Assembly: GCF_024502345.1 (NCBI RefSeq)
Contig: NZ_JALDNN010000001.1
Direction: 5' to 3' (one strand)
DNA from: Escherichia coli
Lineage (GTDB): Bacteria; Pseudomonadota; Gammaproteobacteria; Enterobacterales; Enterobacteriaceae
DNA: 64,000 nt
Shown here: piece after piece, positions 4,009 through 42,736 of the stretch
Layout: each line of letters starts with the position of its first letter
How positions within the stretch are numbered: position 1 is the first letter of the stretch
Translations under genes and position numbers: made by a program
The notes under the pieces: generated by a model
Databases searched by the model: none
Seen by the model: only the letters and a program-made list of their open reading frames with translations
Told to the model about the DNA's origin: nothing

Positions 4009-4653
4009 ATGGCTCGCACAAAACTGAAATTCCGGCTGCATCGGGCAGTGATTGTCCTGTTCTGTCTTGCCTTGTTAGTGGCGCTGATGCAGGGGGCGTC
4101 ATGGTTTAGTCAAAACCACCAGCGACAGCGTAATCCACAGCTGGAAGAACTGGCCCGCACCCTGGCGCGTCAGGTGACGCTGAACGTTGCACCGCTGATG
4201 CGTACCGACTCACCGGATGAAAAACGCATTCAGGCGATCCTCGATCAGTTAACGGATGAAAGCCGTATCCTCGACGCGGGTGTGTATGACGAACAAGGCG
4301 ATCTTATCGCACGTTCTGGCGAAAGCGTCGAAGTGCGCGACCGGCTGGCGCTCGACGGTAAAAAAGCGGGCGGTTATTTTAACCAGCAGATTGTCGAACC
4401 AATTGCCGGGAAAAACGGACCGCTCGGTTATCTGCGCCTGACGCTCGACACCCATACGCTCGCCACCGAAGCCCAACAGGTGGATAACACCACTAACATT
4501 TTACGCCTGATGTTGCTGCTCTCACTGGCAATCGGCGTAGTGCTGACCCGCACGCTGCTACAGGGTAAACGTACCCGCTGGCAGCAATCGCCCTTCCTGT
4601 TAACCGCCAGCAAACCGGTGCCGGAAGAGGAAGAAAGCGAGAAAAAAGAGTGA
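4009..4653 (+). CDS. ytjB: Membrane protein YtjB (Smp)
   Basis: 214 aa MARTKLKFRLHRAVIVLFCL..., N-terminal TM segment, conserved position between serB and lplA. Confidence 0.85.
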   Translation: MARTKLKFRLHRAVIVLFCLALLVALMQGASWFSQNHQRQRNPQLEELARTLARQVTLNVAPLMRTDSPDEKRIQAILDQLTDESRILDAGVYDEQGDLIARSGESVEVRDRLALDGKKAGGYFNQQIVEPIAGKNGPLGYLRLTLDTHTLATEAQQVDNTTNILRLMLLLSLAIGVVLTRTLLQGKRTRWQQSPFLLTASKPVPEEEESEKKE

Positions 4654-4680
4654 CCCATTACTACAAGAAAGGAAATCGTT

Positions 4681-5697
4681 ATGTCCACATTACGCCTGCT
4701 CATCTCTGACTCTTACGACCCGTGGTTTAACCTGGCGGTGGAAGAGTGTATTTTTCGCCAAATGCCCGCCACGCAGCGCGTTCTGTTTCTCTGGCGCAAT
4801 GCCGACACGGTAGTAATTGGTCGCGCGCAGAACCCGTGGAAAGAGTGTAATACCCGGCGGATGGAAGAAGATAACGTCCGCCTGGCGCGGCGCAGTAGCG
4901 GTGGCGGCGCGGTGTTCCACGATCTCGGCAATACCTGCTTTACCTTTATGGCTGGCAAGCCGGAGTACGATAAAACCATCTCCACGTCGATTGTGCTCAA
5001 TGCGCTGAACGCGCTCGGCGTCAGCGCCGAAGCGTCCGGACGTAACGATCTGGTGGTGAAAACCGCCGAAGGCGACCGCAAAGTCTCAGGATCGGCCTAT
5101 CGCGAAACCAAAGATCGTGGCTTCCACCACGGCACCTTGCTGCTCAATGCCGACCTTAGCCGCCTGGCAAACTATCTCAACCCAGATAAAAAGAAACTGG
5201 CGGCGAAAGGCATTACCTCAGTGCATTCCCGCGTGACCAACCTCACCGAGCTGCTGCCGGGGATCACCCATGAGCAGGTTTGCGAGGCCATAACCGAGGC
5301 CTTTTTCGCCCATTATGGCGAGCGCGTGGAAGCGGAAATCATCTCCCCGGACAAAACGCCAGACTTGCCAAACTTCGCCGAAACCTTTGCCCGCCAGAGT
5401 AGCTGGGAGTGGAACTTCGGTCAGGCTCCGGCATTCTCGCATCTGCTGGATGAACGCTTTAGCTGGGGCGGCGTGGAACTGCATTTCGACGTTGAAAAAG
5501 GCCATATCACCCGCGCCCAGGTGTTTACCGACAGCCTCAACCCCGCGCCGCTGGAAGGCCTCGCCGGGCGACTGCAAGGCTGCCTGTACCGCGCGGATAT
5601 GCTGCAACAAGAGTGCGAAGCGCTGTTGGTTGACTTCCCGGACCAGGAAAAAGAGCTACGGGAGTTGTCGACGTGGATAGCGGGGGCGGTAAGGTAA
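4681..5697 (+). CDS. lplA: Lipoate-protein ligase A
   Basis: 338 aa [22 protein letters not shown]... matches LplA. Confidence 0.93.
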
Positions 5698-5728
5698 CTC
5701 GCTGATTAAAATACCAAAGGAAGGGAAT

Positions 5729-5992
5729 ATGATCGATCTGGAAAACCAAGAGCGGGAGATTATCAATTTAATGTTAAGCCAGCGTATTTCCTGGCTAGCC
5801 GCCGTGCGTATCAGGCATAAATTATCGCTTGCTGAAGTAAGTAAAATGTTAGGTATCTCGATTAATTCTCTAAAATAGATCGAAAAGACGGAACGGTTTA
5901 GCTCAAACATCAAAAGCAAAATGGCAGAAATTTATGGTTGTCCACCAGAGTTGCTGATATGCCCTTCCTGGATGACGGCTGAACATAAATGA
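5729..5992 (+). pseudogene. XRE-like HTH reading frame interrupted by one in-frame TAG (MIDLENQEREIINLM...ISINSLK*IEKTERFSSNIKSKMAEIYGCPPELL)
   Basis: AGGAAG RBS then ATG at 5729; 49 codons, TAG, then 37 more in-frame codons with an HTH-like tail; occupies the lplA-deoD gap where I recall yjjJ in K-12. Confidence 0.35.
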
Positions 5993-6090
5993 ATAGATTC
6001 GTGAATAGATACTTGAATGTATTTTATTTTCTATCCATATGAAAAATAATAGTAAATCTATAAATCAGTTGCTATTGATGAATAGATACT

Positions 6091-6119
6091 AAAAAGCCGG
6101 AGCAGTCTCCCGCTCCGGC
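6091..6119 (-). terminator. Rho-independent terminator downstream of deoD
   Basis: GCCGGAGC / GCTCCGGC stem followed by a T-run on the minus strand, just past the deoD stop. Confidence 0.7.
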
Positions 6120-6152
6120 TTAACACAACAATCGTCTTTCAGCGAAACACAA

Positions 6153-6872
6153 TTACTCTTTATCGCCCAGCAGAACGGATTCCAGTGCGATTTTGATCAT
6201 GTCGTTGAAGGTGGTCTGACGCTCAGCGGCAGTGGTTTGCTCGTGAGTGCGGATGTGGTCAGACACGGTGCAGATGGTCAGGGCTTTCGCGCCAAACTCT
6301 GCAGCCACGCCGTAGATACCAGCCGCTTCCATTTCCACGCCGAGAATGCCGTATTTTTCCATCACGTCGAACATTTCGCCGTCCGGAGAGTAGAACAGGT
6401 CAGCGGAGAACAGGTTACCCACGCGAGCATCAACGCCCAGTGCTTTAGCCGCGTCTACCGCGTTACGCACCATGTCAAAGTCAGCGATAGCGGCAAAGTC
6501 ATGATCTTTAAAACGGATGCGGTTAACTTTGGAATCGGTGCAGGCACCCATACCGATAACGACGTCGCGCAGTTTTACGTGCGGCAGAACTGCGCCACAG
6601 GAACCCACGCGGATAATTTTCTTCACGCCGAAATCGGTGATCAGTTCTTTGGTGTAGATGGAGCAGGACGGGATACCCATACCGTGACCCATTACGGAAA
6701 TTTTGCGGCCTTTGTAAGTACCGGTGAAGCCCAGCATACCGCGAACGTTGTTCACTTCACGGGCATCTTCAAGGAAAGTTTCAGCAATATACTTCGCACG
6801 CAGCGGGTCGCCTGGCATCAAAACTACGTCAGCGAAATCGCCCATTTCTGCATTAATGTGTGGGGTAGCCAT
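6153..6872 (-). CDS. deoD: Purine nucleoside phosphorylase
   Basis: 239 aa [31 protein letters not shown]... matches DeoD. Confidence 0.95.
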
Positions 6873-10712: not shown

Positions 10713-12263
10713 ATGCCCACTTCTCATGAAAATGCACTGCAACAACGTTGCCAGCAAATTGTCACCAGCCCAGTGCTTAGCCCGGAGCAGAAGCGCCATT
10801 TTCTGGCACTGGAAGCAGAAAACAATCTGCCTTACCCACAGCTTCCTGCCGAAGCCCGCCGCGCGCTGGATGAAGGTGTAATCTGCGATATGTTTGAAGG
10901 TCATGCGCCGTACAAACCGCGCTATGTCTTACCCGATTACGCCCGTTTTCTGGCGAACGGTTCCGAATGGCTGGAGCTGGAAGGCGCGAAAGATCTTGAT
11001 GACGCACTCTCTCTGCTGACCATTCTTTACCACCACGTACCGTCGGTCACATCGATGCCGGTCTACCTGGGGCAACTGGATGCGTTGTTGCAACCGTATG
11101 TTAGAATTCTAACACAAGACGAGATCGATCTTCGAATAAAACGTTTCTGGCGTTACCTCGACAGAACCCTGCCAGACGCCTTTATGCACGCCAATATCGG
11201 CCCGTCTGATTCGCCTATTACCCGCGCGATCTTACGTGCAGACGCAGAGTTGAAGCAGGTTTCACCGAACCTGACCTTTATCTACGATCCTGAAATCACC
11301 CCTGATGACCTGCTGCTGGAAGTGGCGAAGAACATCTGTGAATGTAGCAAACCGCACATCGCCAACGGTCCGGTGCATGATAAAATTTTCACAAAAGGGG
11401 GCTACGGGATTGTGAGCTGTTACAACTCACTGCCGCTGGCTGGTGGTGGCAGCACGCTGGTACGCCTTAACCTGAAAGCCATTGCCGAGCGCAGCGAATC
11501 GCTGGATGACTTCTTTACGCGCACTCTACCGCACTACTGCCAGCAGCAGATCGCCATCATCGATGCGCGGTGTGAATTCCTCTATCAACAATCACACTTC
11601 TTTGAGAATAGCTTCCTGGTGAAAGAAGGGCTGATTAACCCTGAACGTTTTGTGCCAATGTTTGGCATGTATGGGCTGGCGGAAGCGGTTAACTTGCTGT
11701 GTGAGAAAGAAGGGATTGCCGCGCGCTACGGTAAAGAAGCCGCCGCAAATGAAGTGGGTTATCGCATCAGCGCGCAACTGGCGGAGTTTGTCGCCAATAC
11801 CCCCGTGAAATATGGCTGGCAAAAACGCGCCATGTTACACGCACAGTCGGGGATCAGTTCCGATATCGGCACCACGCCGGGCGCGCGTTTGCCGTATGGC
11901 GATGAGCCAGATCCGATCACCCATCTGCAAACTGTCGCCCCGCATCATGCTTATTATTATTCCGGCATCAGCGACATTCTGACGCTCGACGAAACCATCA
12001 AACGTAACCCGCAGGCACTGGTACAGCTTTGCCTCGGTGCCTTTAAAGCCGGAATGCGTGAATTTACTGCCAATGTCAGCGGTAACGATCTGGTTCGCGT
12101 TACCGGTTATATGGTGCGTTTGTCGGATTTAGAAAAATATCGCGCCGAAGGTTCACGCACCAACACCACCTGGCTGGGCGAAGAAGCCGCACGCAACACT
12201 CGTATTCTGGAACGCCAGCCGCGCGTGATAAGCCATGAACAGCAGATGCGCTTTAGTCAGTAA
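10713..12263 (+). CDS. yjjI: YjjI, putative glycyl-radical enzyme (C-terminal RVTGY motif), substrate unknown
   Basis: 516-aa ORF; glycine-radical-like motif RVTGYMV near the C-terminus; followed by an activase-like gene. Confidence 0.85.
11099..11114. promoter_or_regulatory. Second DeoR operator-like palindrome TGTTAGAATTCTAACA (deoP1 candidate)
   Basis: Perfect 16-bp palindrome exactly 599 bp from the proximal site, the operator spacing I recall for the deo operon; lies inside the yjjI coding sequence. Confidence 0.6.
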
Positions 12264-13098
12264 GATTATCCCCTTCTCCTGCGTTGACGGGCCAGGCAGT
12301 CGTCTGGCTCTGTTTTTGCAGGGCTGCAATCTGCGCTGCAAAAACTGTCACAATCCGTGGACGATGGGACGCTGCAATGATTGCGGAGAGTGCGTGCCAC
12401 AGTGTCCGCATCAGGCGTTGCAGATTGTTGACGGCAAAGTGCTGTGGAACGCTGTGGTCTGCGAGCAATGTGATACCTGCCTGAAGAGGTGTCCGCAACA
12501 TGCCACGCCAATGGCGCAATCCATGAGCGTGGATGAGGTGCTTAGCCATATCCGCAAAGCGGTGCTGTTTATTGAAGGGATAACGGTAAGCGGCGGCGAA
12601 GCCACGACCCAACTGTCGTTTGTAGTGGCGCTATTTACAGCCATCAAAAACGATCCGCAACTGCGCCACCTCACCTGCCTCGTGGACAGTAACGGTATGT
12701 TGAGCGAAACCGGCTGGGAAAAATTACTCCCGGTGTGCGACGGCGCGATGCTCGATCTCAAAGCGTGGGGGAGCGAATGTCATCAGCAATTAACCGGACG
12801 CGATAATCAGCAGATTAAGCGCAGCATCTGTTTGCTGGCAGAGCGCGGTAAGCTGGCGGAACTGCGTTTGCTGGTAATTCCAGACCAGGTGGATTATTTG
12901 CATCACATCGATGAGCTGGCGACGTTTATCAAGAGACTTGGCGATGTTCCGGTTCGCCTGAATGTGTTTCATGCCCACGGCGTGTATGGCGAGGCGCAAA
13001 GCTGGGCGAGCGCCACGCCGGAAGACGTTGAGCCGTTGGCTGATGCGTTAAAGGTGCGCGGGGTGAGCCGGTTGATATTTCCGGCGCTCTATTTGTGA
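12235..13098 (+). CDS. yjjW: YjjW, glycyl-radical enzyme activating enzyme (radical SAM)
   Basis: 287 aa; CxxxCxxC-type cysteine clusters ([20 protein letters not shown]), PFL-activase-like N-terminus [15 protein letters not shown]. Confidence 0.85.
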
Positions 13099-13099
13099 C

Positions 13100-13295
13100 A
13101 TGCCGGATACGGCCTACGGTTCGGCACAAACCTGTAGGCATGATAAGACGCGTCAAGCGTCGCATCAGGCATTGTGCGCCAACTGCCGGATGCGGCGTGA
13201 ACGCCTTATCCGGCCTACGGTTCGGCACAAACCTGTAGGCATGATAAGACGCGACAAGCGTCGCATCAGGCATTATGCGCCGACTGCCGGATGCT
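13100..13295. repeat. BIME cluster (several REP units)
   Basis: Repeated GCCGGATGCGGCGTGAACGCCTTATCCGGCCTACG and CGTCGCATCAGGCAT units. Confidence 0.7.
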
Positions 13296-13311
13296 GCCTA
13301 CGAAGGGCAAA

Positions 13312-14094
13312 CTACCCACGAACGTTAAACACCGCATACGTGTTATTAAGCAACACTTCGGCAATCTCATCCGCCGGTTCCCGGCGCAACTCGCAAAGCA
13401 CGTCAAACACCCGCGCAGCCTGTTCCGGGCGGTTAGGCTGCCCTTGAAAGCCGTTGAGCGGCATATCCGGCGCGTCGGTTTCCAGCAACAACGATGCCAG
13501 CGGTAATTTTGCGATGACATCGCGGGTTTTACTGGCGCGTGGATAGGTGATAGTACCGCCTACGCCGATTTTGTAGCCCAGCTGTACAAACCGCTCGGCC
13601 TGTTGCAGGCTGCCGGAAAAACCGTGAACCACGCCAGTGCGCGATAAATCGTGGCGTTTAAGATGCATCGCCAGTTTGTCGTGTGTGCGCCGTGAATGCA
13701 GGATCACCGGCAGATCGTAGCGTTTCGCCAGTTTCAGTTGTTCGTCGAGTAACCACTGCTGCCTCTCAAATTGCGGATCGTCGCCGAAGAGATCCAGACC
13801 GATCTCCCCCACCGCCACCACCTTCGCCGGACGCCTTTCCAGCGCCTGCTGTAGCTGATCAAGAGACACATCGCTATGTTTTTCCAACATCCCCGGATGC
13901 AACCCCAATGCGGCATACAGCGGTTGATATTTTTCCGCTAACGCCTGCACGCGGGCAAAATTTTCCGCCTCTGTCGCCGGAACAATGATCTTGCCTACAC
14001 CCGCTTGTGCCGCGCGTTGCAGGCTGGCCTCTTCATCGCCACTAAACGGCGGAAAATCAAAATGGCAGTGGGTGTCGATAAAACGGCAAATCAA
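13312..14094 (-). CDS. yjjV: TatD-family metal-dependent hydrolase / DNase
   Basis: 260 aa MICRFIDTHCHFDFPPF... TatD signature. Confidence 0.88.
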   Translation of the reverse strand: MICRFIDTHCHFDFPPFSGDEEASLQRAAQAGVGKIIVPATEAENFARVQALAEKYQPLYAALGLHPGMLEKHSDVSLDQLQQALERRPAKVVAVGEIGLDLFGDDPQFERQQWLLDEQLKLAKRYDLPVILHSRRTHDKLAMHLKRHDLSRTGVVHGFSGSLQQAERFVQLGYKIGVGGTITYPRASKTRDVIAKLPLASLLLETDAPDMPLNGFQGQPNRPEQAARVFDVLCELRREPADEIAEVLLNNTYAVFNVRG

Positions 14095-15200
14095 GCCAGA
14101 TCCTCATTGTTAAATGTCGGGTCGTTCGCCTGCGGAGCATCGCTCACTTCGGCAACCAGCGTATCGTTGGCGACTGGCGCAGGCGGAATAACAATCGATT
14201 CCGGCGTCACCACTGGCACCAGATGGCGGGTAAGCGGCGCTTTTTCAGTTAATAGCTTGCCAACCGTGGCGAGGAAATAACGACCGCATAAACGCCCAAG
14301 TTTATAGTCTTCACGCAGCGCCGGAATCCGACTGCCAAGCGCGATACTATGTAATGGCTTCGGCGGATAAATTTCGAATATCCGCAGCTTGCCCGGTGGT
14401 TTCTCAATAAATTGCTGAATGTCACGATAGCTGGTTTCATGATGCTGCACCAGATTGACCAGCGGCTGCAGGCTACTGTCACCCAGCCAGCGTTCCATGC
14501 GTTTGAACCACTGCGGCGTGTAGTACATTTGTGACGGCACAGTGCGGATGACGACCAACGTTTTAGCGCCCTGCCTTGCCGCCTCTTTAACCGGAATCGC
14601 ATCACTGATCCCGCCATCCAGGTAGTTAATGCCTTCCAGCGACACTCCGCTACGATAAAAGCCAGGTATCGCACTGGAGGCGCGAATCACATCCAGCCAG
14701 TTTTGTTTGGTTGGTAAAAAGTAATTCGGCGCGTAGTCATCCTGACGACAGGCGCACATATAAAACGATTTGCCGCTGTCAAACAACCGCGCGGCGGTAT
14801 CCATTTGCAACGGCATCTGGCTTGCGGTGGCCTCCACCAGCCAGTCGAGATCGATAAGATTTCCTCCACGGACAAAGCGCAATGGATCGAAAAATTCGCG
14901 TTTTGTGGTATAGCGCATGATGACTTTGCGCGCGTAACCGGGCTGATTGCAGATAAACGCCGAGAGGTTCTGCGCCCCGGCAGATGTGCCGAGATAAAGA
15001 TCGAAAGGATTAAACTGCGCGCGCATAAACTCATCCAGCACGCCAGCCGTGAAAATTCCACGCTGTCCGCCGCCTTCGCACACCAGAGCTATTCGTCCAG
15101 GCTGGAACGGCCTTAGCGACAACGGCGCAATATTACCCAGCGTTACAGGTATTCGCTGCCCCACCTCTGCCTTCCTGTTTTTGTTGTGAAAGAATGACAA
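14091..15200 (-). CDS. yjjU: Patatin-like phospholipase family protein
   Basis: GGGQRG and GTSAG patatin motifs; the true start may be an internal GTG near 15164. Confidence 0.85.
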   Translation of the reverse strand: MSFFHNKNRKAEVGQRIPVTLGNIAPLSLRPFQPGRIALVCEGGGQRGIFTAGVLDEFMRAQFNPFDLYLGTSAGAQNLSAFICNQPGYARKVIMRYTTKREFFDPLRFVRGGNLIDLDWLVEATASQMPLQMDTAARLFDSGKSFYMCACRQDDYAPNYFLPTKQNWLDVIRASSAIPGFYRSGVSLEGINYLDGGISDAIPVKEAARQGAKTLVVIRTVPSQMYYTPQWFKRMERWLGDSSLQPLVNLVQHHETSYRDIQQFIEKPPGKLRIFEIYPPKPLHSIALGSRIPALREDYKLGRLCGRYFLATVGKLLTEKAPLTRHLVPVVTPESIVIPPAPVANDTLVAEVSDAPQANDPTFNNEDLA

Positions 15201-15285
15201 AGTAACGCAATTTATTATTCGCTAAAACCGCAAAAGCCAGTCCGCTGGACTGGCTTTGGATAAAATTTTCTTAATGGTCTGAAAT

Positions 15286-15447
15286 CTAGGGTCGTTTTCG
15301 GCCCATGAACAAACTCACCAGGAACAGAATAATCCCGACGACAAAGACAATTTTAGCTGCGCCTGCAGCGGTACCGGCCAGACCACCAAACCCAAGTGCG
15401 GCGGCGATTAACGCGATAACCAGAAATATGATGCCCCAACGAAACAT
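15286..15447 (-). CDS. ytjA: Small membrane protein YtjA (DUF1328)
   Basis: 53 aa [22 protein letters not shown]... Confidence 0.8.
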
Positions 15448-15536
15448 AAGCGTCTCCTTTACCATAGTTAATGTCACCGCTTGATATGAGCGTGAAAATC
15501 ACTCAATGCGATATTTTTAGTGTGGTGCACATCGCG

Positions 15537-15558
15537 CCTCCCGACAAAGTTCGGGAGG
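15537..15558 (-). other. Stem-loop downstream of osmY (CCTCCCGA/TCGGGAGG)
   Basis: Perfect 8-bp inverted repeat; no clear T-run, so terminator status is uncertain. Confidence 0.4.
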
Positions 15559-15573
15559 ACGAATTACGACGAA

Positions 15574-16179
15574 TTACTTAGTTTTCAGATCATTTTTAAC
15601 GCTTTTCACACCATCTACCGCTTTGGCGATACTTTCAGCACGGTCACTTTGTGCCTGAGAATCTACGGTACCGAAGAGCTGAACCACGCCATCGGTGGTT
15701 TCAACTTTCACATGACGGGAAGGGACGATATCGTCCGCCAGCAGTTTGGCTTTGATTTCACTGGTGGTGGCGGTGTCACCCGCGTAGCCCTTCACCGAGC
15801 CTTCTTTAGCGTCGCGAACGTGCAGTTTGTCGCTGACAGAGGTCACCCCTTCAACGCCTTTCGCCACTTTTACTGCCTCTTCGGCCTGGGCCTGGCTTTC
15901 AACGAAACCGCTCAGGGTCACGACTTTTTGATCGGTTTTTACAGAGATATCGGTGCTCTTGATGTTGTCATGATCCACCAGGGCCGCCTTCACTTTCGCG
16001 GTGATGGCGCTGTCATCCATGAAATTACCGACTTTATTCATAGAGCTATCGACTTTTTGCCCTGCGCTTTCATTGGTAGTCTGCGCGTTGTTTTCCGCGT
16101 AGGCAGAGCCGGTCGCGACGGCAGAGGTCAACATTACAGCCAGCAGAGTTTTCGAAATCTTCAGTCTTGTCATAGTCAT
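15574..16179 (-). CDS. osmY: Osmotically inducible periplasmic protein OsmY (two BON domains)
   Basis: 201 aa from [28 protein letters not shown] (signal peptide). Confidence 0.93.
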
Positions 16180-20535: not shown

Positions 20536-21117
20536 CTACGGCAGTGCTGGCCATTCAATATCCTGTGCAGTTGACGTATCAACACGGTTCAGCAATACCC
20601 GATACTTTTTCCATGCTTCCAGCAACGAGATTTCTTCCTCCGTTGCAATTTCCAGATCTGCAGCATCCTGAAGCGGCGCAATATGCTCACTGGCTACCTG
20701 CATCAGGTTGTTTTTTGTTTCTTCCGCCTCCCGGATCCGGAACAGTTTTTCTGCTTCCGTATCCTTCACCCAGGCTGTGCCGTTCCACTTCTGAAACTCC
20801 CCTTCCGGGGATAACCAAGTGACATTTTCCGGTAATGGGCCAAGTTCAGAAATAAATAACGCGTCGCCGGAAGCCACGTCATAGACGGTTTTACCCCGAT
20901 GGTCTTCAACGAGATGCCACGATGCCTCATCACTGTTGAAAACAGCCACAAAGCCAGCCGGAATATCTGGCGGTGCAATATCGGTACTGTTTGCTGGCAG
21001 ACCTGTATGAGGTGGAATATATGCATCACCTTCACCAATAAATTCATTAGTTCCGGCCAGCAGATTATAAATTGTTATGGTCCGTGGTTGTTCACTCATT
21101 CTGAAATCCATGTTCAC
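20536..21117 (-). CDS. tfa: Tail fibre assembly protein (Tfa)
   Basis: 193-aa ORF with Tfa-like sequence, immediately downstream of the tail-fibre-like ORF. Confidence 0.8.
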
Positions 21118-21119
21118 CT

Positions 21120-22022
21120 CTACTTAATATCAGAGACAGAATATTGTTTATTGAACGTATGGGTGTGAGCACCAATAACGATGCTACTTCCGTGGCTATG
21201 TGCGCCAGAGATGACATTACCTACGGGATTTTCTGGATTAATCCGGTGTATATGCGAACCAGGGCGAAACCGGTTATTAGCCTGATGTTGTATCAGTACA
21301 TCATCAGCCTGATGTTCAGGGTTAATACAGACCTGCCCGGAACGTGAGCAATACGTCCGATAATCGCCGCATCCAATATATTTAGTATCCGCATAACGGC
21401 AAACAGAATTACCCGGACAGTATGCATATGTGCCAAATACTGCCGACTGGCGGGATTGTGCGTATTCCCAGTTAATTGATTCTGTTTTTTTATTAAAGTT
21501 ATCCCATGCCTGCTTCATCTGCCGGGCAACACTTTCAAACGGCACCTGACCACATCCGGCTCCCATTGCAGGGAATACCACCGTTTTTATTTTCCTGTCT
21601 GTCGTTGCGTGTTTATTGTGCTGAAAGATGGCAAGCAGAGCGGCCCAGGTTGCGTTATATACAGCGTCTGTTCCGTCAATTGTCAGCGGAACACGCATTG
21701 TTGGCGCATGTACCAGCCAGGGATGATGATTATGCCCCGTTTCAATAACAAATGCAGAACCTACAGGCTGCTCGCCGAGATATTCACGAAGAATATGATT
21801 CTGAACGCGGGACTGTAACTGAGTACCGAAGAATGCGGTAATGGCGGCATCAACACCGCCATCCATCAGGCCGAAACTGTTTGCCGCACTTACCATGCAG
21901 TCAAATTCCCTGATTGTTTCAAATGGCTTTCCGACAATATTCACATTATCTGCATTTGCGAATACCCGCTTAAATGCTTCAGCCATTTCTGTTACTGGTG
22001 CAGAAAGAATGAGCGTAATCAT
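21120..22022 (-). CDS. Macro-domain-like protein with a Cys-rich, HxH-repeat C-terminus
   Basis: Motifs [30 protein letters not shown]...[21 protein letters not shown] resemble the macro (ADP-ribose binding) fold; C-terminus GAHSHG...GAHTHT resembles tail-fibre HxH repeats. Confidence 0.55.
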
Positions 22023-22170
22023 GCAAGCCTCACAATATAGTTAAATGCGATGTTTTTGACGGTGTTTTCCGCGTTACCAGCAGCGTTAACGGTGATGGTG
22101 TGTCCATGTGACCCTATCGCAACGGAGTGCGTATGAGCACCAATACCGACAGTATGCGCGTGTGCACCTG
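22019..22170 (-). pseudogene. C-terminal fragment of side tail fibre (Stf) protein
   Basis: ...[51 protein letters not shown]; canonical Stf C-terminal end; N-terminal part missing. Confidence 0.7.
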
Positions 22171-22204
22171 CAGATACTGCTGTAAAAACGCATGAAATGT
22201 GCCG

Positions 22205-22892
22205 ACTCGTTAGCGGCTTTTTCGATCTGGCAGGAGCCTTTGATTTTAGGCGTCGAGCCGCGAATGGATTTTGGCCATACAGAGCCCTCAATACGTTTAT
22301 CCCCCAGCAGGGTTGGCGAACCCTCTTTTTCAACATCCGGTTCGAACGAGGAAAGTTCGTCATAGCAGACCACATCCACGGATTTTTCACGGTAGTTTTT
22401 GGCGGCAGCGCCGCCCAGGCACCATAAACCGACGCCCGATGAAAAGCGTTTCAGCGTGAGGGTATTATCACGATGTTTACGACCCAGCCATGGGGAAAGG
22501 TCTTTCAGGCATGGCACGTCCCTAATCGTCGTCTCCACGTGAGACTTCATAAAATCTTCAGCGGCAGAATCCGTGGGCTGAAAAAGCAGACTGTTTCGGG
22601 ATTTATGCTCAATAAAATACCCGACCACCCCCAGCAACATCTTTGTATAGCCAACACGGGCAGATTTAATCAGATTAACTGTGCGGATCTGATCATTCCC
22701 CATACTGTTCATGATGGCGATCTGGAACGGCAGCGTTTTCCATTCGCCGTCACCGTATGAGGATTCTTTCGGCAGATAATAATACTGATCAGCCCATTCA
22801 ACTGCCGTCATCGGTACAACCCTGACCAGAGGCTGCAGCGCAACCGAAACGGCAGCCATCAGATTATTCAGTTGTTGCTCTGATATATTCAT
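22205..22892 (-). pseudogene. Terminase large subunit (lambda gpA-like), N-terminal fragment only
   Basis: MNISEQQLNNLMAAV...TAVEWADQYYYLPKESSYGDGEWKTLPFQ...[34 protein letters not shown] aligns with lambda A residues ~1-250, then the frame degenerates into the stf fragment. Confidence 0.8.
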
Positions 22893-23367
22893 CCAGCAAA
22901 TCCGGTAATTTATCCCCTGCCCGCGCACACTGATTTGCGCCCTTCGCAATAAGGGTTTTCAGATGGTCAAGATGACGTGGCGTTAAATCCGGGAACTGTC
23001 GCTGCATGGATAACGGAATAGAATCAAGCGTACTGGACAATGCCATCGCCAGCTTGCTGAGGGCGAAAACGCAGAAGTCTGAATCGATGAGCTTACCTTC
23101 GGTTACCTGATTTTTAAGTTTTTGAGCTACGGCCTGTTCTTCTGTCAGTTCAGCTCTGGCCCGAAGCAGCCTTTCCTCCAGATCGCCCCCGTCATCAGGT
23201 GTTCTATGATTGTGTTGTCGCCGCTCGCGATCTATCTCCAGTACAGTTTTAACGTCATAAAAAACTTCCCTCCCCCGACGCTCGACAGGAGGAACGCCCC
23301 ATTTATCAAATGCCTGAACAGAGATACCGATGGAGGAGGCCATATCACTTTTATTCAATAAAAAGGC
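22864..23367 (-). CDS. Terminase small subunit (lambda Nu1-like, NohA/NohQ-type)
   Basis: MAFLLNKSDMASSIGISVQAFDKWG...LPLSMQRQFPDL...LDEYI resembles Nu1. Confidence 0.8.
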   Translation of the reverse strand, partial: AFLLNKSDMASSIGISVQAFDKWGVPPVERRGREVFYDVKTVLEIDRERRQHNHRTPDDGGDLEERLLRARAELTEEQAVAQKLKNQVTEGKLIDSDFCVFALSKLAMALSSTLDSIPLSMQRQFPDLTPRHLDHLKTLIAKGANQCARAGDKLPDLLDEYIRATTE

Positions 23368-25360: not shown

Positions 25361-25592
25361 TAAGCAAAAAAGCTCCCGAAGGAGCCTTCATTTTCACTTT
25401 CTTAAATCTAACGACAGACGGCTAACATTTAAGTATTGTGAAATATTATCAAATGTAATCATCATTGATTTACAAAAGATACATTTTGCCCCGAAAGGAT
25501 TCCTGTCAGAAACATCAAAAGATGATGTTCTATACTGAGAACCATGGCAACACGGGCATCTAAAGTGAATATGGTTTGTAATATTTTCTACC

Positions 25593-25805
25593 TCAAAGTG
25601 CCACTACATGAACAGCCGCGGGGCCTTTAGGTCCGTTCTCAATACCAAATTCGACTTGCTGATTCTCAGTTAACGTTTTGAAATCGTTGCTCTGAATAGC
25701 TGAGAAATGGACAAACACATCTTTGCTACCATCTTTCGGCGTGATGAAACCAAAACCTTTTTCAGGGTTAAACCATTTCACTAAACCAGTCATTTTGTTA
25801 GACAT
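25593..25805 (-). CDS. cspI: Cold-shock protein (CspA family), prophage copy
   Basis: [38 protein letters not shown]... RNP1/RNP2 motifs; the paralog name is a guess from Qin gene order. Confidence 0.8.
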
Positions 25806-26174
25806 CATTATTACCTTTTGAAGAAGTGAGCCCTTGGGCAGAATGGTCCGAAAAAAAATATCAGAGAGAAAAACCAACAAGGAAATCTCAAGAGGTACAA
25901 ATAATAAAATTATAACAATGACTGCTTCAGATAATTTTGTAACAAACCAGAACACCATTAACGCATGATTAACCAACCATAGCAAGGATTACTTTTGTAA
26001 AGAAAAACACACGAATGAAACAATAGCTTTATTTATTAATAAAACGTGTCATTCTGTCTAATGACCTTTTATCTTACCCTTAAGATTTCAAGGATTTTGA
26101 CTCATGGAAGAGTCCTTTTTATTTAAATTTCACATTCAGCGCTAAAAATAATCCGATTTAATGTTAATCTACAT

Positions 26175-28577: not shown

Positions 28578-28856
28578 TATTGTGGTACTTTTTGTGGGAG
28601 TCATCCACTTACGCACTTTGTTTTGCTATGCCAGCAGTTAGCTTCTGCTGTAAAACTATTCATGCAGCAAACCTGCACTTCACCACAATGGTTAGCATAC
28701 TTTTCCTGATTAAGTTATTGCCAAATATGCTGGCCATTGTTTCATGTATTGGACCTCCTTACTCTTTATTAAAGAGATCCAATATTCACCACTCTGTCTG
28801 TATCTCCACTCAGGCATCAGCCTTCTTCGTTATCGTATACAGACAAACTATGAATT

Positions 28857-29072
28857 TTAATCAGTAATTATGACATTTGCTGCTGCAGGACCTTTAGCAC
28901 CACTCTCTACAGAGAAGGTAACCTTTTGACCTTCAAATAAGATTCGATAATTATCATTCTGAATCGCAGAAAAATGCACAAACACATCTTTACTACCATC
29001 AACAGGAGAAATAAAGCCAAAACCTTTATCAGCGTTAAACCATTTTACTAAACCAGTCATTTTATTTGACAT
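28857..29072 (-). CDS. cspB: Cold-shock protein (CspB-like)
   Basis: [38 protein letters not shown]... Confidence 0.85.
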
Positions 29073-29372
29073 TCTACATTCCTTAACTTGAGCCTTTCGG
29101 CATAAATGGCTTGTATAACAGAAACGACTTCGTACTTAATTGGAGAGACTCAAAGAAGGAATAAGTGAATAACACCTGAAATGAGAACTGCTTTAGTAAA
29201 CTACTTCGTATATCGTCTGTTCTTCAAACCGACGCAATCATTAACGCATAGTTGAACATATGAAGCAATGTTTATTTTAGACATCCAGCCATCTTCAACC
29301 CCATCAAAAAACTATAGCTTTCTTCAGGAACGTGTGTATAGTGCGCCAAGTTATCAGTATTAAGGAATTTTT

Positions 29373-30820: not shown

Positions 30821-31171
30821 TCAGCTCCAGCTGGGAGCCATACTTCTCTTCAAATGCCACGGTAAACGCTGGTTAATATCGGCATTGTCCACATCCTCGA
30901 CGTCAGGAAGAGACACAAAGACGCCATTTGCAGACTGCGCCACAGCGTCAGCAATGAAGTGAGTGCCACCAGCACGTTGTAAAATCATTGCCCATCCCAG
31001 CGGGAAAATCTGATCGCCATCGGCACGAAGGCGGTTAAATAATGCGTTCTCTGTTACATCCAGCCACTCAGCAGCTTCAGCGTACCCCACCGGCAACGCC
31101 GCGATAGTTTTTCTGACAGCTTTCACGTACCACTCAGGCTGTTTTTCCACTTTCCAGTGATGATTACCCAC
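30821..31171 (-). CDS. Phage regulatory protein, CII-like; possibly truncated
   Basis: 116-aa ORF overlapping the Cro-like gene stop and ending 60 bp before Q; no replication genes in between. Confidence 0.4.
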   Translation of the reverse strand: MGNHHWKVEKQPEWYVKAVRKTIAALPVGYAEAAEWLDVTENALFNRLRADGDQIFPLGWAMILQRAGGTHFIADAVAQSANGVFVSLPDVEDVDNADINQRLPWHLKRSMAPSWS

Positions 31172-31521: not shown

Positions 31522-32214
31522 ATGAACATAGGAAACCGAGTCAGACAACTTCGCCAAGCGAAGAACATGAAAATCGCCGATCTCGCTGAAGCAATAGGAG
31601 TGGATGCGGCGAATATCTCACGCCTGGAAACAGGTAAGCAGAAACAATTCACTGAACAAGCCCTGAGTAATATTGCCAGGAGCTTAGGTGTTGATATTGC
31701 TGATCTCTTTACCTCAGACTTCAAAAGTAATACTGTATGTAAAAACAGTGTTAGTGAGGATGTTGCGCAGGTGAAGGATGTATTCCGTATTGAAATGCTG
31801 GATGTCAGTGCCAGTGCGGGAAATGGCCTTATCCAGGGCGGTGATGTCATTGATGTGATTCATGCCATTGAATACAGAACTGATAATGCTGTATCGATGT
31901 TTGGCGGACGGCCAGCCAATCACATTAAAGTTATCAACGTTCGTGGGGACAGTATGTGTCCAACCATTGAGCCAGGAGATCTCATCTTCGTTGATGTCAG
32001 TATCAATCAGTTTGATGGAGATGGTATCTATGTATTTGGTTTTGATGATAAAATTTATGTCAAACGACTGCAAATGATACCTGACAAACTACTGGTGATT
32101 TCTGATAACCAGATTTACCGTGAATGGGGAATTACCAGCGAAAATGAACACCGGTTTATGGTCTTTGGAAAGGTCTTAATCAGCCAGTCACAAACCCTTA
32201 AGCGACACAATTAA
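31522..32214 (+). CDS. CI-like repressor (HTH plus S24 LexA-type peptidase domain)
   Basis: N-terminal HTH IADLAEAIGVDAANISRLE; C-terminal GDSMCPTIEPGDLIFVD...VKRL Ser/Lys dyad. Confidence 0.85.
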   Translation: MNIGNRVRQLRQAKNMKIADLAEAIGVDAANISRLETGKQKQFTEQALSNIARSLGVDIADLFTSDFKSNTVCKNSVSEDVAQVKDVFRIEMLDVSASAGNGLIQGGDVIDVIHAIEYRTDNAVSMFGGRPANHIKVINVRGDSMCPTIEPGDLIFVDVSINQFDGDGIYVFGFDDKIYVKRLQMIPDKLLVISDNQIYREWGITSENEHRFMVFGKVLISQSQTLKRHN

Positions 32215-32234
32215 CCCTTACCTCCTCATCAATT

Positions 32235-32256
32235 AGCCACCCAAAGGTGGCTTTTC
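32235..32256 (+). terminator. Rho-independent terminator after cI
   Basis: AGCCACC-CAAA-GGTGGCT stem followed by TTTT. Confidence 0.65.
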
Positions 32257-32649
32257 ATTACCCTTTAAATTGCATATCTCGCAACAAAAACACTTGCATA
32301 ATGCGCAACTTCATTTTATCTTTCTTTCCAGACAAACAAACAAGGTACTAACAAAATTTGGTTGTAACACGGCGTATGGCACATGCGTCGTTAGCGGTCT
32401 GGGGACGTTAAAGGGGACAATCCACTCCTTGCTCGGGCAAACAAACCAGGTAGCCGGAATGTGCAAGTCAATGATGATGCTGATAAGACGCCTAACCAGC
32501 GTGGCGATTCGGTTTGACGCCTGGGAAGAGACCAGGGTGCAACGATGAGGGCATTTATGGAGCCGCGACAAAGTGTGGTGCCGTAACTGGCTAAGTGCTC
32601 TCAGCGTTGTGGTAATCCGCGAAATGGCGCGGCGGTAAGTATGGCGGGG

Positions 32650-33255
32650 TTACTCTTTCCCCGTTGAGGACACCGGATTGTCAGGTTGACCATACGCCTG
32701 AGTGACAACAACCAGACGATTCAGGGCAGTATCATCCGCCTTTTCCGGTAACAGCCCATGCAGGTATACAAGTCCATCCCAGCGGCTGTTTTTTGGAATT
32801 GGCAGCATCGGCGCTACATAGGCCTGAAAAGCCTGGCCTGTACGTTTAGCTGCCACATGAAAGAGACGGTCAAAGTTGGTAGTGACCAATCGAAGGGCAC
32901 CCTCGCGGCTACGGGCTAAACGTAACAGCGCCGCCTGAGTATCAATAGCGCCCCTACGACGGAACTTTGGCTTAAGGGCTTTTTCCAACGCGCGTCGGAC
33001 GGCTATACGCTGCCCTGGTAAGCGCCGTTCCAGCAAATCTAATGTGCCGTCAAATTGCCCACGCTCGAAAACCTCACGCTCAATTTCTGAAAGTGTTGTT
33101 CCGTTCCTCTGGTAAATTAGTTCTACCAACCCTTTGAAACCAGGTAAACCAGCAGGGTAGGAAATGCCTGCTCCACAGAAGAACACAACGCGCCCTTCCT
33201 CGTGCGCCTGCAAAAGCTCATCAGGAATATCAGGGCCGTTGGTAATGAATTGCAT
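32650..33255 (-). CDS. SIR2-like domain protein (short, 201 aa)
   Basis: VVFFCGAGISYPAGLPGFKGL (Rossmann GAG), VTTNFDRLF, LVYLHGLL match SIR2_2-type motifs as I recall them. Confidence 0.55.
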   Translation of the reverse strand: MQFITNGPDIPDELLQAHEEGRVVFFCGAGISYPAGLPGFKGLVELIYQRNGTTLSEIEREVFERGQFDGTLDLLERRLPGQRIAVRRALEKALKPKFRRRGAIDTQAALLRLARSREGALRLVTTNFDRLFHVAAKRTGQAFQAYVAPMLPIPKNSRWDGLVYLHGLLPEKADDTALNRLVVVTQAYGQPDNPVSSTGKE

Positions 33256-33437
33256 TCCTTTTCCTCCTATCCAATGTGCACGTTCATTCGAGTAAATGAA
33301 GGCAAGGGGTTACATCTTATTATACCGACCGTGCAAATCCGGCTTCCTAGCAAGCTACTTTACTTGCCAACTCATAATGTCCGAACTCCGAACAAAGCGG
33401 ACTGCTAGATTTGATTGCGTTCTAGCTACGCAAAATA

Positions 33438-34661
33438 TCATTTCGAGCCTAAACGAGTACAAGTAACAATCGATTCAACTCTCTCCCACCATGCCTGGTA
33501 GGCTTTACGCTGTTCTTCTAGATAATCACTCTTGTCATAAACTTGCCATACACCTGGCAGTTTATGACCGAGCATTATTTCAGCAATATGAGGCGCAGTA
33601 AGATCAGAAAAGTTTGTTCGTGCTGTTCGTCTCAAATCATGAAGAGACCAATGAGGAAATTGATACCCCAAACGCCGCCATGCGTACTGCATTAAATTGT
33701 AAGGCAGCGACTGCAATGATGTCCGACCAACTGGTTCCCTGCTTCCTTCCTTAGTAAAAAGCATATCGGAACCGTTGTTCATAGAGATAACGTATTTTAT
33801 AAGCTCTTCAACCGGTTCAATAATGGGCCGCTTTAGCGGTTCGCCTGTTATATCCCCTGTCTTATGTCGTTCTGGTGGTACAGTCCATATTTTATTAATG
33901 AAATCAAAATCGTCCACCTTGGCAGTAATTAGCTCTGAACTACGGCAACCAAAATGCAGCAATAGTTTAATGAAGGCCCGGTATTTAGGAACCATTCGAG
34001 AACCATCGATCGCAGCATAAAGGATTTTAATTTCATCATGTGTCAGAAACCGTTTCTTCTGACCTTTACGGATATCCATATCTTTACCCGTGATATCCGA
34101 CAGCGGGCGAGTTTCAATGAGCTTTCTCTTATACGCCCAGACATGGGCCTGCTTTGCGTTAATTAGCAATCGGTCTGCTATTGCTGGAGTCTTAGTGCTA
34201 AGAGGCTCCAGGACTTCTAACCAATCATGCAATGTAGCTGCATCGTGAGGGATATTCCCGATTTTAGAGAACAGGTGCAGCTCAAACGAGCGGAGTATCT
34301 GTTCAGAACCTTTTTTATTTTTTACACAATATGCTTCATACCAAGCACGGATCACAGATTCTACCGTCATGGCTTCAGTAGCTTTACGTTTTTCTGCCAG
34401 CTTGACCAATCGTGGATTGCGGTTTGACTCGAGTTCACCACGAAGACGGATAACTTCTTCTCTGGCCTCTTTTAGTCCAGTTGCCGGGTAAGTTCCGATA
34501 TCAAGACGCTCACCTTTCCCCGCCCACTGATAACGATATTGGAACACTACGCGACCTTTCGGTGATACTCTAACAGACAGACCATCACGATCGGATTTAA
34601 CCAAAACCTTATCACGTTCCTTTCCAAGGACTGAACGCAACCACGCATCAGACAGCGCCAT
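33438..34661 (-). CDS. int: Tyrosine integrase, P4-type
   Basis: 407 aa; N-terminal DUF4102-like arm-binding region (MALSDAWLRSVLGK...GLSVRVSPKGRVVFQYRYQ), C-terminal catalytic region with HDLRRT...LGHK. Confidence 0.9.
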   Translation of the reverse strand: MALSDAWLRSVLGKERDKVLVKSDRDGLSVRVSPKGRVVFQYRYQWAGKGERLDIGTYPATGLKEAREEVIRLRGELESNRNPRLVKLAEKRKATEAMTVESVIRAWYEAYCVKNKKGSEQILRSFELHLFSKIGNIPHDAATLHDWLEVLEPLSTKTPAIADRLLINAKQAHVWAYKRKLIETRPLSDITGKDMDIRKGQKKRFLTHDEIKILYAAIDGSRMVPKYRAFIKLLLHFGCRSSELITAKVDDFDFINKIWTVPPERHKTGDITGEPLKRPIIEPVEELIKYVISMNNGSDMLFTKEGSREPVGRTSLQSLPYNLMQYAWRRLGYQFPHWSLHDLRRTARTNFSDLTAPHIAEIMLGHKLPGVWQVYDKSDYLEEQRKAYQAWWERVESIVTCTRLGSK

Positions 34662-40371: not shown

Positions 40372-41592
40372 TGTAGATTCAATTGGTCAACGCAACAGTT
40401 ATGTGAAAACATGGGGTTGCGGAGGTTTTTTGAATGAGACGAACATTTACAGCAGAGGAAAAAGCCTCTGTTTTTGAACTATGGAAGAACGGAACAGGCT
40501 TCAGTGAAATAGCGAATATCCTGGGTTCAAAACCCGGAACGATCTTCACTATGTTAAGGGATACTGGCGGCATAAAACCCCATGAGCGTAAGCGGGCTGT
40601 AGCTCACCTGACACTGTCTGAGCGCGAGGAGATACGAGCTGGTTTGTCAGCCAAAATGAGCATTCGTGCGATAGCTACTGCGCTGAATCGCAGTCCTTCG
40701 ACGATCTCACGTGAAGTTCAGCGTAATCGGGGCAGACGCTATTACAAAGCTGTTGATGCTAATAACCGAGCCAACAGAATGGCGAAAAGGCCAAAACCGT
40801 GCTTACTGGATCAAAATTTACCATTGCGAAAGCTTGTTCTGGAAAAGCTGGAGATGAAATGGTCTCCAGAGCAAATATCAGGATGGTTAAGGCGAACAAA
40901 ACCACGTCAAAAAACGCTGCGAATATCACCTGAGACAATTTATAAAACGCTGTACTTTCGTAGCCGTGAAGCGCTACACCACCTGAATATACAGCATCTG
41001 CGACGGTCGCATAGCCTTCGCCATGGCAGGCGTCATACCCGCAAAGGCGAAAGAGGTACGATTAACATAGTGAACGGAACACCAATTCACGAACGTTCCC
41101 GAAATATCGATAACAGACGCTCTCTGGGGCATTGGGAGGGCGATTTAGTCTCAGGTACAAAAAACTCTCATATAGCCACACTTGTAGACCGAAAATCACG
41201 TTATACGATCATCCTTAGACTCAGGGGCAAAGATTCTGTCTCAGTAAATCAGGCTCTTACCGACAAATTCCTGAGTTTACCGTCAGAACTCAGAAAATCA
41301 CTGACATGGGACAGAGGAATGGAACTGGCCAGACATCTAGAATTTACTGTCAGCACCGGCGTTAAAGTTTACTTCTGCGATCCTCAGAGTCCTTGGCAGC
41401 GGGGAACAAATGAGAACACAAATGGGCTAATTCGGCAGTACTTTCCTAAAAAGACATGTCTTGCCCAATATACTCAACATGAACTAGATCTGGTTGCTGC
41501 TCAGCTAAACAACAGACCGAGAAAGACACTGAAGTTCAAAACACCGAAAGAGATAATTGAAAGGGGTGTTGCATTGACAGATTGAATCTACA
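40372..41592 (+). mobile_element. IS30 insertion sequence (1221 bp)
   Basis: Terminal inverted repeats TGTAGATTCAATTGGTCAACGCAACAG / ...GTTGCATTGACAGATTGAATCTACA; candidate 2-bp target duplication GC. Confidence 0.9.
40434..41585 (+). CDS. insI: IS30 transposase
   Basis: 383 aa [31 protein letters not shown]...; length and sequence match IS30 Tnp. Confidence 0.92.
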
Positions 41593-42736
41593 GCTATCTG
41601 GTTGATGCCCCATCCTTTACCTAGTAGCCGCAGTACCTTGCGCTCTGAAAGAGTGAGAATGACGGAGCGATAGCTAAAATCATGAGTTTCAGTCATTGCC
41701 GGGGAGGTCAGCATGGTGCTGATACGCTCTGCGTGCGTATTGCCGGAACGTACGGTCTTGACCAGATTCTCAATGGGTTCAACATCAGACAATAACGTCG
41801 CCGTAGGGCACATGAGTAATTCTACTGCCTGGGAATACCAGGAGCGTGACACCATGAAAACCCAGTGAATTTCCCGATATTGTGAGATTAAAGAATAATA
41901 ATGTTCACAAACAGAACGTGGATCTTCACTTTCACCGGCTAAATCAGCAATGACTAATCCGGAACGACGTAATTGTAATAAGGTAAGGTTCTCCGCAGAG
42001 GCGCTGGATATTATTTCATATTCAGGGAAGTGAGTCCTCATGACCTCTTTTAACCCTGCTTGCATAACAGGTATTTTACTGATAACAATTCCATTTTTGC
42101 AGCATCCTGGCAACATATTTCCTCCACATCCACTGTCTAAAAATTATGATGGTTTATTCAGGATATTCATTCCTTAAATGTTTCCAGCAAATTAATAGAT
42201 TAAGCGAATAAATTATCCTTAGCATTCACTTTCATATCAGCATACTCCTGCTGCACAACAACTCCACTGCATGTGTCAGAAGGTTAGCATCAAATGATAA
42301 CCTGGTGAAATAGCCTGGAGACATTTAAAATATCTACATTAAGTTGTTAGGGATACTTAATGAAAAACAGAAATCACATTCATTTAATTTATAATTAAAT
42401 GATATCCCTTCCCGCAGAATGCGGGAATCACACAATCAATATTTATTCAATAAAATCTGATGATTTTAACTTGTTAACACTAAAAAACGCGCCCAGCTAT
42501 CTATTATCCTGACCCGTAAAGGCTAAAACAATAAATTCATTATAGTGATAATATTCATGTGATAGTTTGTTTGCGGCGAGAGATAATTCGCTTTTTATCA
42601 CCGAGCTTGTCCCGATAACCAGGATTAATCAGCGCAATTTTGATCTTAACCTACCGCAAAACAACCGTGCTTCATGATACAAATGGATTCTCATTATCTG
42701 AACAATACGCAGCACGTCTATGACAAAGGGCGAGTT

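Follow-up and report, generated by a model that had tools for sequence, protein, structure and literature searches.

Dsr1 is a single-gene anti-phage defense system. DSR1 depletes NAD+ upon infection (bioRxiv 10.1101/2021.12.14.472415), and its C-terminal region was described in a 2026 preprint as a TPR sensor, common to Dsr1 and Avs7, which recognizes phage major capsid proteins; for EcDsr1, the major capsid protein was the trigger, and the effector was required (PMC12803255). The gene ancestral to the locus described here would have encoded such a protein, with an N-terminal SIR2 NADase fused to a TPR-repeat sensor of ~950 aa, acting by abortive infection: as published for Dsr1, binding of a phage major capsid protein by the sensor would be followed by activation of the SIR2 domain and depletion of NAD+. 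The accession of the tested EcDsr1 (WP_029488749.1) was absent among the cluster members listed, and its identity with the type of Dsr1 used for comparison below, that of Escherichia coli O55:H7 CB9615, is not implied.

The window, that is, the whole stretch of 64,000 nucleotides of E. coli DNA analyzed here (contig NZ_JALDNN010000001.1 of assembly GCF_024502345.1), contains a 201-aa ORF which an earlier note, made from the letters alone, had taken for a SIR2-type candidate defense gene lying between an integrase and a cI repressor gene. The ORF, its motifs, and its neighbors were all found (Table 1), with the ORF on the minus strand, which the earlier note had left unspecified. GAGIS corresponds to residues 28-32, TTNFD to residues 125-129, and LHG to residues 165-167 (numbering checked on an alignment of 31 diverse Dsr1 N-termini); an AGGAGG sequence lies 7 nt ahead of the ATG, and the reading frame is free of internal stops and frameshifts. 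Identical copies of the protein are annotated as “SIR2 family protein” by NCBI. The sequence past the TAA is not protein-like, just as the earlier note had stated, and has no homology to Dsr1. A promoter scan of positions 32150-33500 did not find a full sigma-70 consensus and yielded only two hairpins (a terminator-like one after cI, and one close to the int end on the non-coding strand), and a search of the whole window against Rfam gave no match inside 32215-33437.

Every profile library placed the match of the ORF at the extreme N-terminus of a far longer family. Residues 1-189 aligned to positions 1-189 of 1275 in the PADLOC profile for Dsr1 (PDLC02183; E = 5e-119), PHROG 15208 was matched over the same 189 of its 1275 positions (E = 5e-124), and NCBIfam NF041818, “anti-phage defense-associated sirtuin Dsr1,” was matched with E = 2.9e-99, although the score of 333.4 bits stayed below the curated cut-off (1,400). 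The N-terminal region is, thus, orthologous to Dsr1 by profile match and by its locus, which is the same in CB9615 (see below), and the ORF falls short of a full-length Dsr1 (~1,250 aa) and of the equivalog score. A search against Pfam, as the earlier note had proposed, matched SIR2_2 (E = 3.7e-6), at model positions 3-63 of 141 only. The SIR2 models of PADLOC matched weakly, that for ThsA over ORF residues 13-68 only (E = 8e-4); the features that define the ThsA of Thoeris, SIR2 together with SLOG and an adjacent ThsB TIR gene, are not found at the locus. Models of CobB-type sirtuin deacylases gave at most 16 bits against cut-offs of 221-395, limited to the GAGIS loop; a classical sirtuin deacylase (CobB) was rejected because the ORF misses the cut-off of this full-core family. 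Also rejected was a fused gene, for which a match of the last 19 residues to PHROG 3651 (E = 0.011) was considered. In intact prophages, a spurious ORF antisense to yfdP ends in the same tail as the 201-aa ORF, which explains this weak match.

Table 1. Features of the dsr1′ locus and of related deletions (positions refer to the window unless an accession is given).
Feature	Position	Strand	Remarks
Terminase-large fragment, 287 aa	22086..22949	-	DNA only 85% identical to CB9615
Truncated ymfL, 116-aa N-terminal stump (YmfL/CII-like, PHROG 101)	30821..31171	-	Now joined to the DNA immediately preceding the gene for antiterminator Q
Second deletion junction	30862..30864		5.3 kb of replication/nin region lost (10838-16108 of the CB9615 locus, L010)
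cI-like repressor, HTH + S24 peptidase, 230 aa	31522..32214	+	Converges on dsr1′ from the other side
Non-coding spacer downstream of cI, now fused to dsr1′	32215..32706	+	100% identical to CB9615; terminator-like hairpin 32235-32252
201-aa ORF, product of the truncated dsr1 (dsr1′) pseudogene	32650..33255	-	ATG to TAA; profile matches
18 non-Dsr1 codons (TQAYGQPDNPVSSTGKE, with the preceding V as context) and TAA	32650..32706	-	Spacer downstream of cI, read through in antisense
Deletion junction	32707..32709		3-bp microhomology (AAC) common to both flanks
dsr1-derived codons 1-183	32707..33255	-	GAGIS (28-32), N127/D129, and H166 kept
Native int-dsr1 spacer, 182 bp, unchanged	33256..33437	-	AGGAGG 33268-33263; TATAAT hexamer 33324-33319
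Prophage integrase (tyrosine type), 407 aa	33438..34661	-	182 bp upstream of dsr1′, co-directional
Two further truncated dsr1 alleles	NZ_CP027587.1 (L011) 4924-6546; NZ_AP042682.1 (L012) 4324-6546		Annotated as “SIR2 family protein”

How the short ORF arose became apparent from its counterparts in other genomes. When positions 32215-33437 were compared by megablast with 5,426 complete RefSeq E. coli genomes, the query split in two: 32707-33437 matched the 5′ ends of dsr1 genes together with the int-dsr1 spacer (up to 100% identity), and 32215-32709 matched an unannotated spacer downstream of a cI-like repressor gene. Both halves were contiguous in none of the 5,426 genomes. E. coli O55:H7 CB9615 (NC_013941.1) carries an intact prophage with the same integrase, inserted at the same site between yjjG and prfC (the end adjoining yjjG lies beyond the integrase gene), in which the gene order is int, dsr1, DUF551, yfdS, yfdR, yfdQ, yfdP, spacer, cI, a cro-like gene, and ymfL. 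The longer ortholog that the earlier note had suggested looking for in related prophages is present here: dsr1 of CB9615 comprises 3,828 bp and encodes 1,275 aa. To this protein, 182 of 183 residues of the ORF are identical (the sole difference being L98F), and at the DNA level, codons 1-183 are 100% identical to the dsr1 alleles of six complete genomes. Identity to Dsr1 ends at residue 183, where the intact protein reads VVTSGDFG and that of the window VVVTQAYG. Compared base by base with CB9615, the window tracks the flank on the cI side to position 32709 and that on the dsr1 side from position 32707; missing between them are 6,775 bp (about 5308215-5314989 of NC_013941.1), containing most of dsr1, the DUF551 gene, yfdS, yfdR, yfdQ, and yfdP.

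Thus, dsr1′, as the truncated allele is designated here, arose by simple deletion at a 3-bp microhomology, and the SIR2-like ORF is a dsr1 stump because this deletion left only the first 183 of 1,275 codons. Derivation of the ORF from a truncated anti-phage defense gene, as the earlier note had considered, was thereby borne out. The deletion also created the adjacency of dsr1′ to cI; only that to int is native. The position next to int was, therefore, correctly recognized, but the likeness to the place of rexAB beside cI is an artefact of the deletion, as 6.8 kb, most of dsr1 included, lie in between in the intact prophage. PADLOC found no partner gene and no other defense system among six neighboring prophage proteins (only generic HTH matches for cI were obtained), in agreement with the earlier note; because Dsr1 is a single-gene system, no partner is expected.

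The ~490-bp spacer downstream of cI (32215-32706), which in intact prophages lies upstream of yfdP, carries no annotation, yet has matches in 4,433 of the 5,426 complete genomes of E. coli (usually in at least two places per genome, and in up to nine) and in some plasmids as well. The early-left promoter/operator and the leader of this prophage family probably reside in it; when its repeats were compared with those of the cI-cro intergenic region as a test for oL/pL, only short, weak repeats were common to both. On the other side of dsr1′, the integrase gene has counterparts with 95.5% DNA identity in many Stx2c- and Stx1a-converting phages, and the record of one Stx2c phage (LC727881.1) contains int and the 5′ region of dsr1 at 99.8%. 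The attachment site and the integrase type are, therefore, common to Shiga-toxin phages.

To what extent the remaining 14% of the Dsr1 protein still represents a SIR2 domain was assessed from the intact protein. When its first 600 aa were searched against Pfam, SIR2_2 covered residues 123-269 (model positions 3-141 of 141; E = 6e-23), which means that 45% of the model is present in the 201-aa ORF and that positions 64-141 have been removed. A sequence search of the PDB with intact Dsr1 found no solved Dsr1 structure, only KomC (E = 2e-4), and an AlphaFold2 model of residues 1-330 (pLDDT 91.2, pTM 0.89) was, therefore, used to set domain boundaries. With Foldseek, ~300 columns of this model could be superposed on KomC, DSR2, and ThsA, in each case on the SIR2 NADase domain (E about 1e-10). 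Its core strands are predicted at 23-27, 121-125, 145-147, 161-164, 210-214, 243-249, and 267-272, so that a cut after residue 183 would remove the last three of seven, together with five helices (those from residue 185 on). The NAD-binding GxGxS loop (G28-S32) and the catalytic-type residues N127 and H166 are present in the ORF and invariant in the alignment of 31 Dsr1 N-termini; H166 aligns with H146 of KomC, the residue mutated in PDB entry 9xvc. Lost, on the other hand, are 14 residues invariant in the same alignment, namely F188, G189, A191, Y192, L193, E195, W197, R200, F201, F213, G215, Y216, D220, and Y225, among them the GY motif. The C-terminal TPR/alpha-solenoid sensor (~950 aa) is gone with the 6,775-bp deletion. 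The suggestion of the earlier note that the ORF might be the surviving domain of a rearranged gene, thus, holds as far as a piece of a rearranged gene is concerned, but not for a whole domain.

Could such a fragment nevertheless be a functional minimal SIR2 protein, that is, a stand-alone NADase or a defense protein working without a sensor? Its three motifs, the native ribosome-binding site and upstream region, and the weak matches to the SIR2 models of PADLOC would be in keeping with this, but the fragment lacks more than half of the SIR2_2 model, three of the seven core strands, and 14 invariant residues, its last 18 aa are encoded by the spacer in antisense, and an active NADase released from its sensor would be expected to be toxic. 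A phmmer search with the 201-aa sequence against 1.84 billion representative proteins gave 3,073 matches. Among the best 150 of these, 109 reach a length of 1,150 aa or more (median, 1,244), and the 16 with fewer than 300 aa are heterogeneous, carrying unrelated nonsense tails or being fragments at contig ends; no coherent short family with similar length and end point was found among these 150. In no case did a match reach beyond query residue 190 among the matches listed. A functional minimal SIR2, the alternative left standing by the earlier note, is accordingly disfavored, to the point of being very improbable.

The exact 201-aa protein has been deposited as “SIR2 family protein [Escherichia coli]” (e.g., KUH05635.1); it was found on 78 contigs, the longest of 4.74 Mb, and is indexed in 157 blocks of an assembly collection, from many isolates and metagenomes. 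All eight loci fetched for comparison (L002-L009), from isolates and gut metagenomes, contained the identical 61-bp junction, and seven of the eight also contained the second deletion junction of the prophage (the eighth contig being too short to show it). Because the same junction occurs in eight other assemblies, dsr1′ is one inherited allele, resulting from one event, and not an artefact of assembly. The dsr1 5′ region is present in 75 of the 5,426 complete RefSeq E. coli genomes, and the absence of the junction from all 5,426 is the only point in favor of an artefact, or of the reverse polarity, in which the short form would be ancestral and long Dsr1 a later fusion. The former is contradicted by the eight independent assemblies and the 78 contigs. 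As to the latter, Dsr1 proteins of ~1,250 aa span many diverged lineages (48-70% identity), and the tail of the stump reads, in antisense, the spacer that lies upstream of yfdP, so that it is the short form which is derived. We consider the probability of either of these two explanations close to negligible.

Two complete genomes share the exact 5′ haplotype of the window, yet carry other truncations of dsr1. In OkiPb01713, a 3,958-bp deletion fuses Dsr1 residue 735 to a remnant of yfdQ; in 2013C-4974, the same breakpoint in yfdQ is found together with an IS3 element, and 540 residues are left. The alleles of 735, 540, and 183 aa suggest that dsr1 was eroded stepwise from its 3′ end within one prophage lineage.

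The remainder of the prophage has decayed as well. It spans about 17.5-34.9 kb of the window, compared with 49 kb in CB9615. Beside the loss of the replication/nin region, which left only a stump of ymfL (Table 1), more than 21 kb of the virion module containing head and tail genes have been deleted (at 22018-22949, relative to CB9615), such that the terminase-large fragment abuts the last 154 bp of the tail-fiber gene (22018-22171). The DNA of this fragment is only 85% identical to CB9615, and the packaging module is, therefore, mosaic. The prophage is, thus, cryptic and decaying, which fits a neutral loss of dsr1.

Several other elements were observed in and around this prophage. An ORF of 300 aa (21120..22022, minus strand; PHROG 2613) matched the Pfam Macro domain over residues 44-169 (E = 1.5e-18). 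It lies on a 912-bp insert placed exactly between the end of the tail-fiber gene and the start of the tail-fiber-assembly gene, which is absent from the CB9615 prophage, and a “macro domain-containing protein” is annotated at the same position in 127 of the 5,426 complete E. coli genomes. PADLOC gave no match for this ORF. Judged by its domain, this moron could encode an ADP-ribose-binding or -hydrolyzing protein and could relate to defense, or counter-defense, based on NAD/ADP-ribose. Rfam models matched at gathering score comprised IS009 RNA inside the tail-fiber-assembly gene (20570-20768, minus strand), two cspA thermoregulator leaders (25566-25963 and 28794-29233, both minus strand) before the csp genes of the prophage, and, in the core genome, two naRNA4 (REP-type) elements (24-102 and 13137-13215, both minus strand). 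Relative to CB9615, a copy of IS30 (40372-41592; transposase of 383 aa, 40434..41585, plus strand) is inserted in the yjjQ/bglJ region and cuts short the reading frame of yjjQ, leaving an ORF of 203 aa (41505..42116, minus strand).

That the fragment has acquired a new role was also considered. It might act in a dominant-negative manner, poisoning the oligomerization of intact Dsr1 or of other SIR2 effectors introduced by other elements, or serve as an NAD-binding decoy or regulator. Defense SIR2 domains do work as oligomers or filaments (as in the structures of KomC, ThsA, and DSR2), the fragment may be expressed, and 3′ truncations recur in the lineage. However, the window showed neither an intact dsr1 nor any other SIR2 gene, the sequence of the tail is accidental, there is no sign of selection, and neutral decay along with the other deletions of the prophage is the simpler account of the truncation series, which makes a new role very improbable. 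Little probability is likewise assigned to the idea that the half-domain has been kept for a function (binding of NAD+, or co-assembly that would inhibit Dsr1-type or other SIR2 effectors), or that the erosion from 1,275 via 735 and 540 to 183 aa reflects selection for disarming a capsid-sensing Dsr1 which would be autoimmune to co-resident lambdoid prophages.

Taken together, the 201-aa ORF is very probably a non-functional 5′ stump of dsr1, the dead remnant of a known single-gene defense system. In the ancestral setting, dsr1 closely followed int in a lambdoid prophage inserted between yjjG and prfC. One deletion of 6,775 bp between two AAC triplets then took away codons 184-1275 together with the early-left genes (DUF551, yfdS, yfdR, yfdQ, and yfdP), so that codon 183 now runs into the spacer downstream of cI in antisense, with TAA following 18 codons on. 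This deletion history is directly apparent from the comparison of the sequences; inactivity of the product is what the loss of the sensor and of half of the catalytic fold would imply. As its own ribosome-binding site and upstream DNA have been retained, the stump may still be transcribed and translated; as the SIR2 fold is without its second half and the whole sensor is gone, the product should neither hydrolyze NAD+ nor sense phage. What speaks against a dead remnant is that the NAD-binding loop, N127, H166, a strong Shine-Dalgarno sequence, and an open frame were kept, which may allow expression and residual NAD binding. The unchanged persistence of the allele fits neutrality after a recent event and is in itself no proof of lost function. 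Of the proposed candidate defense gene, its origin from dsr1 thus stands; that it is a working defense gene is unlikely, given the incomplete SIR2 domain and the deletion history.

The case illustrates that a SIR2-like ORF can have all of its motifs and a plausible place in a prophage and yet be a false positive for a “minimal” defense gene, and that profile coverage, together with comparison to the intact orthologous locus, settles such a case at once. It is also a small, clean example of how a prophage loses a defense gene, with a microhomology-mediated deletion and, on a single haplotype, a nested set of truncations (735, 540, and 183 aa), running alongside the loss of replication and virion modules. 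Strains carrying the dsr1′ allele should be scored as Dsr1-negative if they are phenotyped.

Compared with known systems, the locus presents nothing new in kind: gene family, int-adjacent location in a prophage, and mechanism have been published, and public databases already contain the truncated protein. The cI-linked exclusion genes rexAB of lambda resemble dsr1 in being prophage-borne defense genes for which expression in the lysogen is expected, but share no homology with dsr1, the native position of which is by int and not by cI. The SIR2 NADases ThsA (Thoeris) and KomC have the fold of the intact Dsr1 domain, with the catalytic His aligned, but the window contains no SLOG domain and no ThsB or KomAB partner gene. 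DSR2 of Bacillus subtilis, a SIR2-MID-CTD NADase sensing the phage tail tube, also shares the SIR2 fold with the intact Dsr1 domain (TM about 0.6-0.7) and follows the same logic of effector and sensor on a single polypeptide; sequence identity is only ~15%, sensor and trigger are different, and the window ORF is without the parts for either. Avs7, a STAND NTPase, contains a homologous Dsr1-type TPR sensor for the phage major capsid protein (PMC12803255), which bears on the intact ancestor only, as the window is without sensor and NTPase. Closest is Dsr1 itself: residues 1-183 are orthologous, the same integrase gene lies 182 bp upstream, and the NAD-binding loop, N127, and H166 are common to both, but the ORF is without the C-terminal half of SIR2 and the whole TPR sensor and ends in a foreign tail of 18 aa. 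It should, thus, be labeled a dsr1 pseudogene rather than Dsr1.
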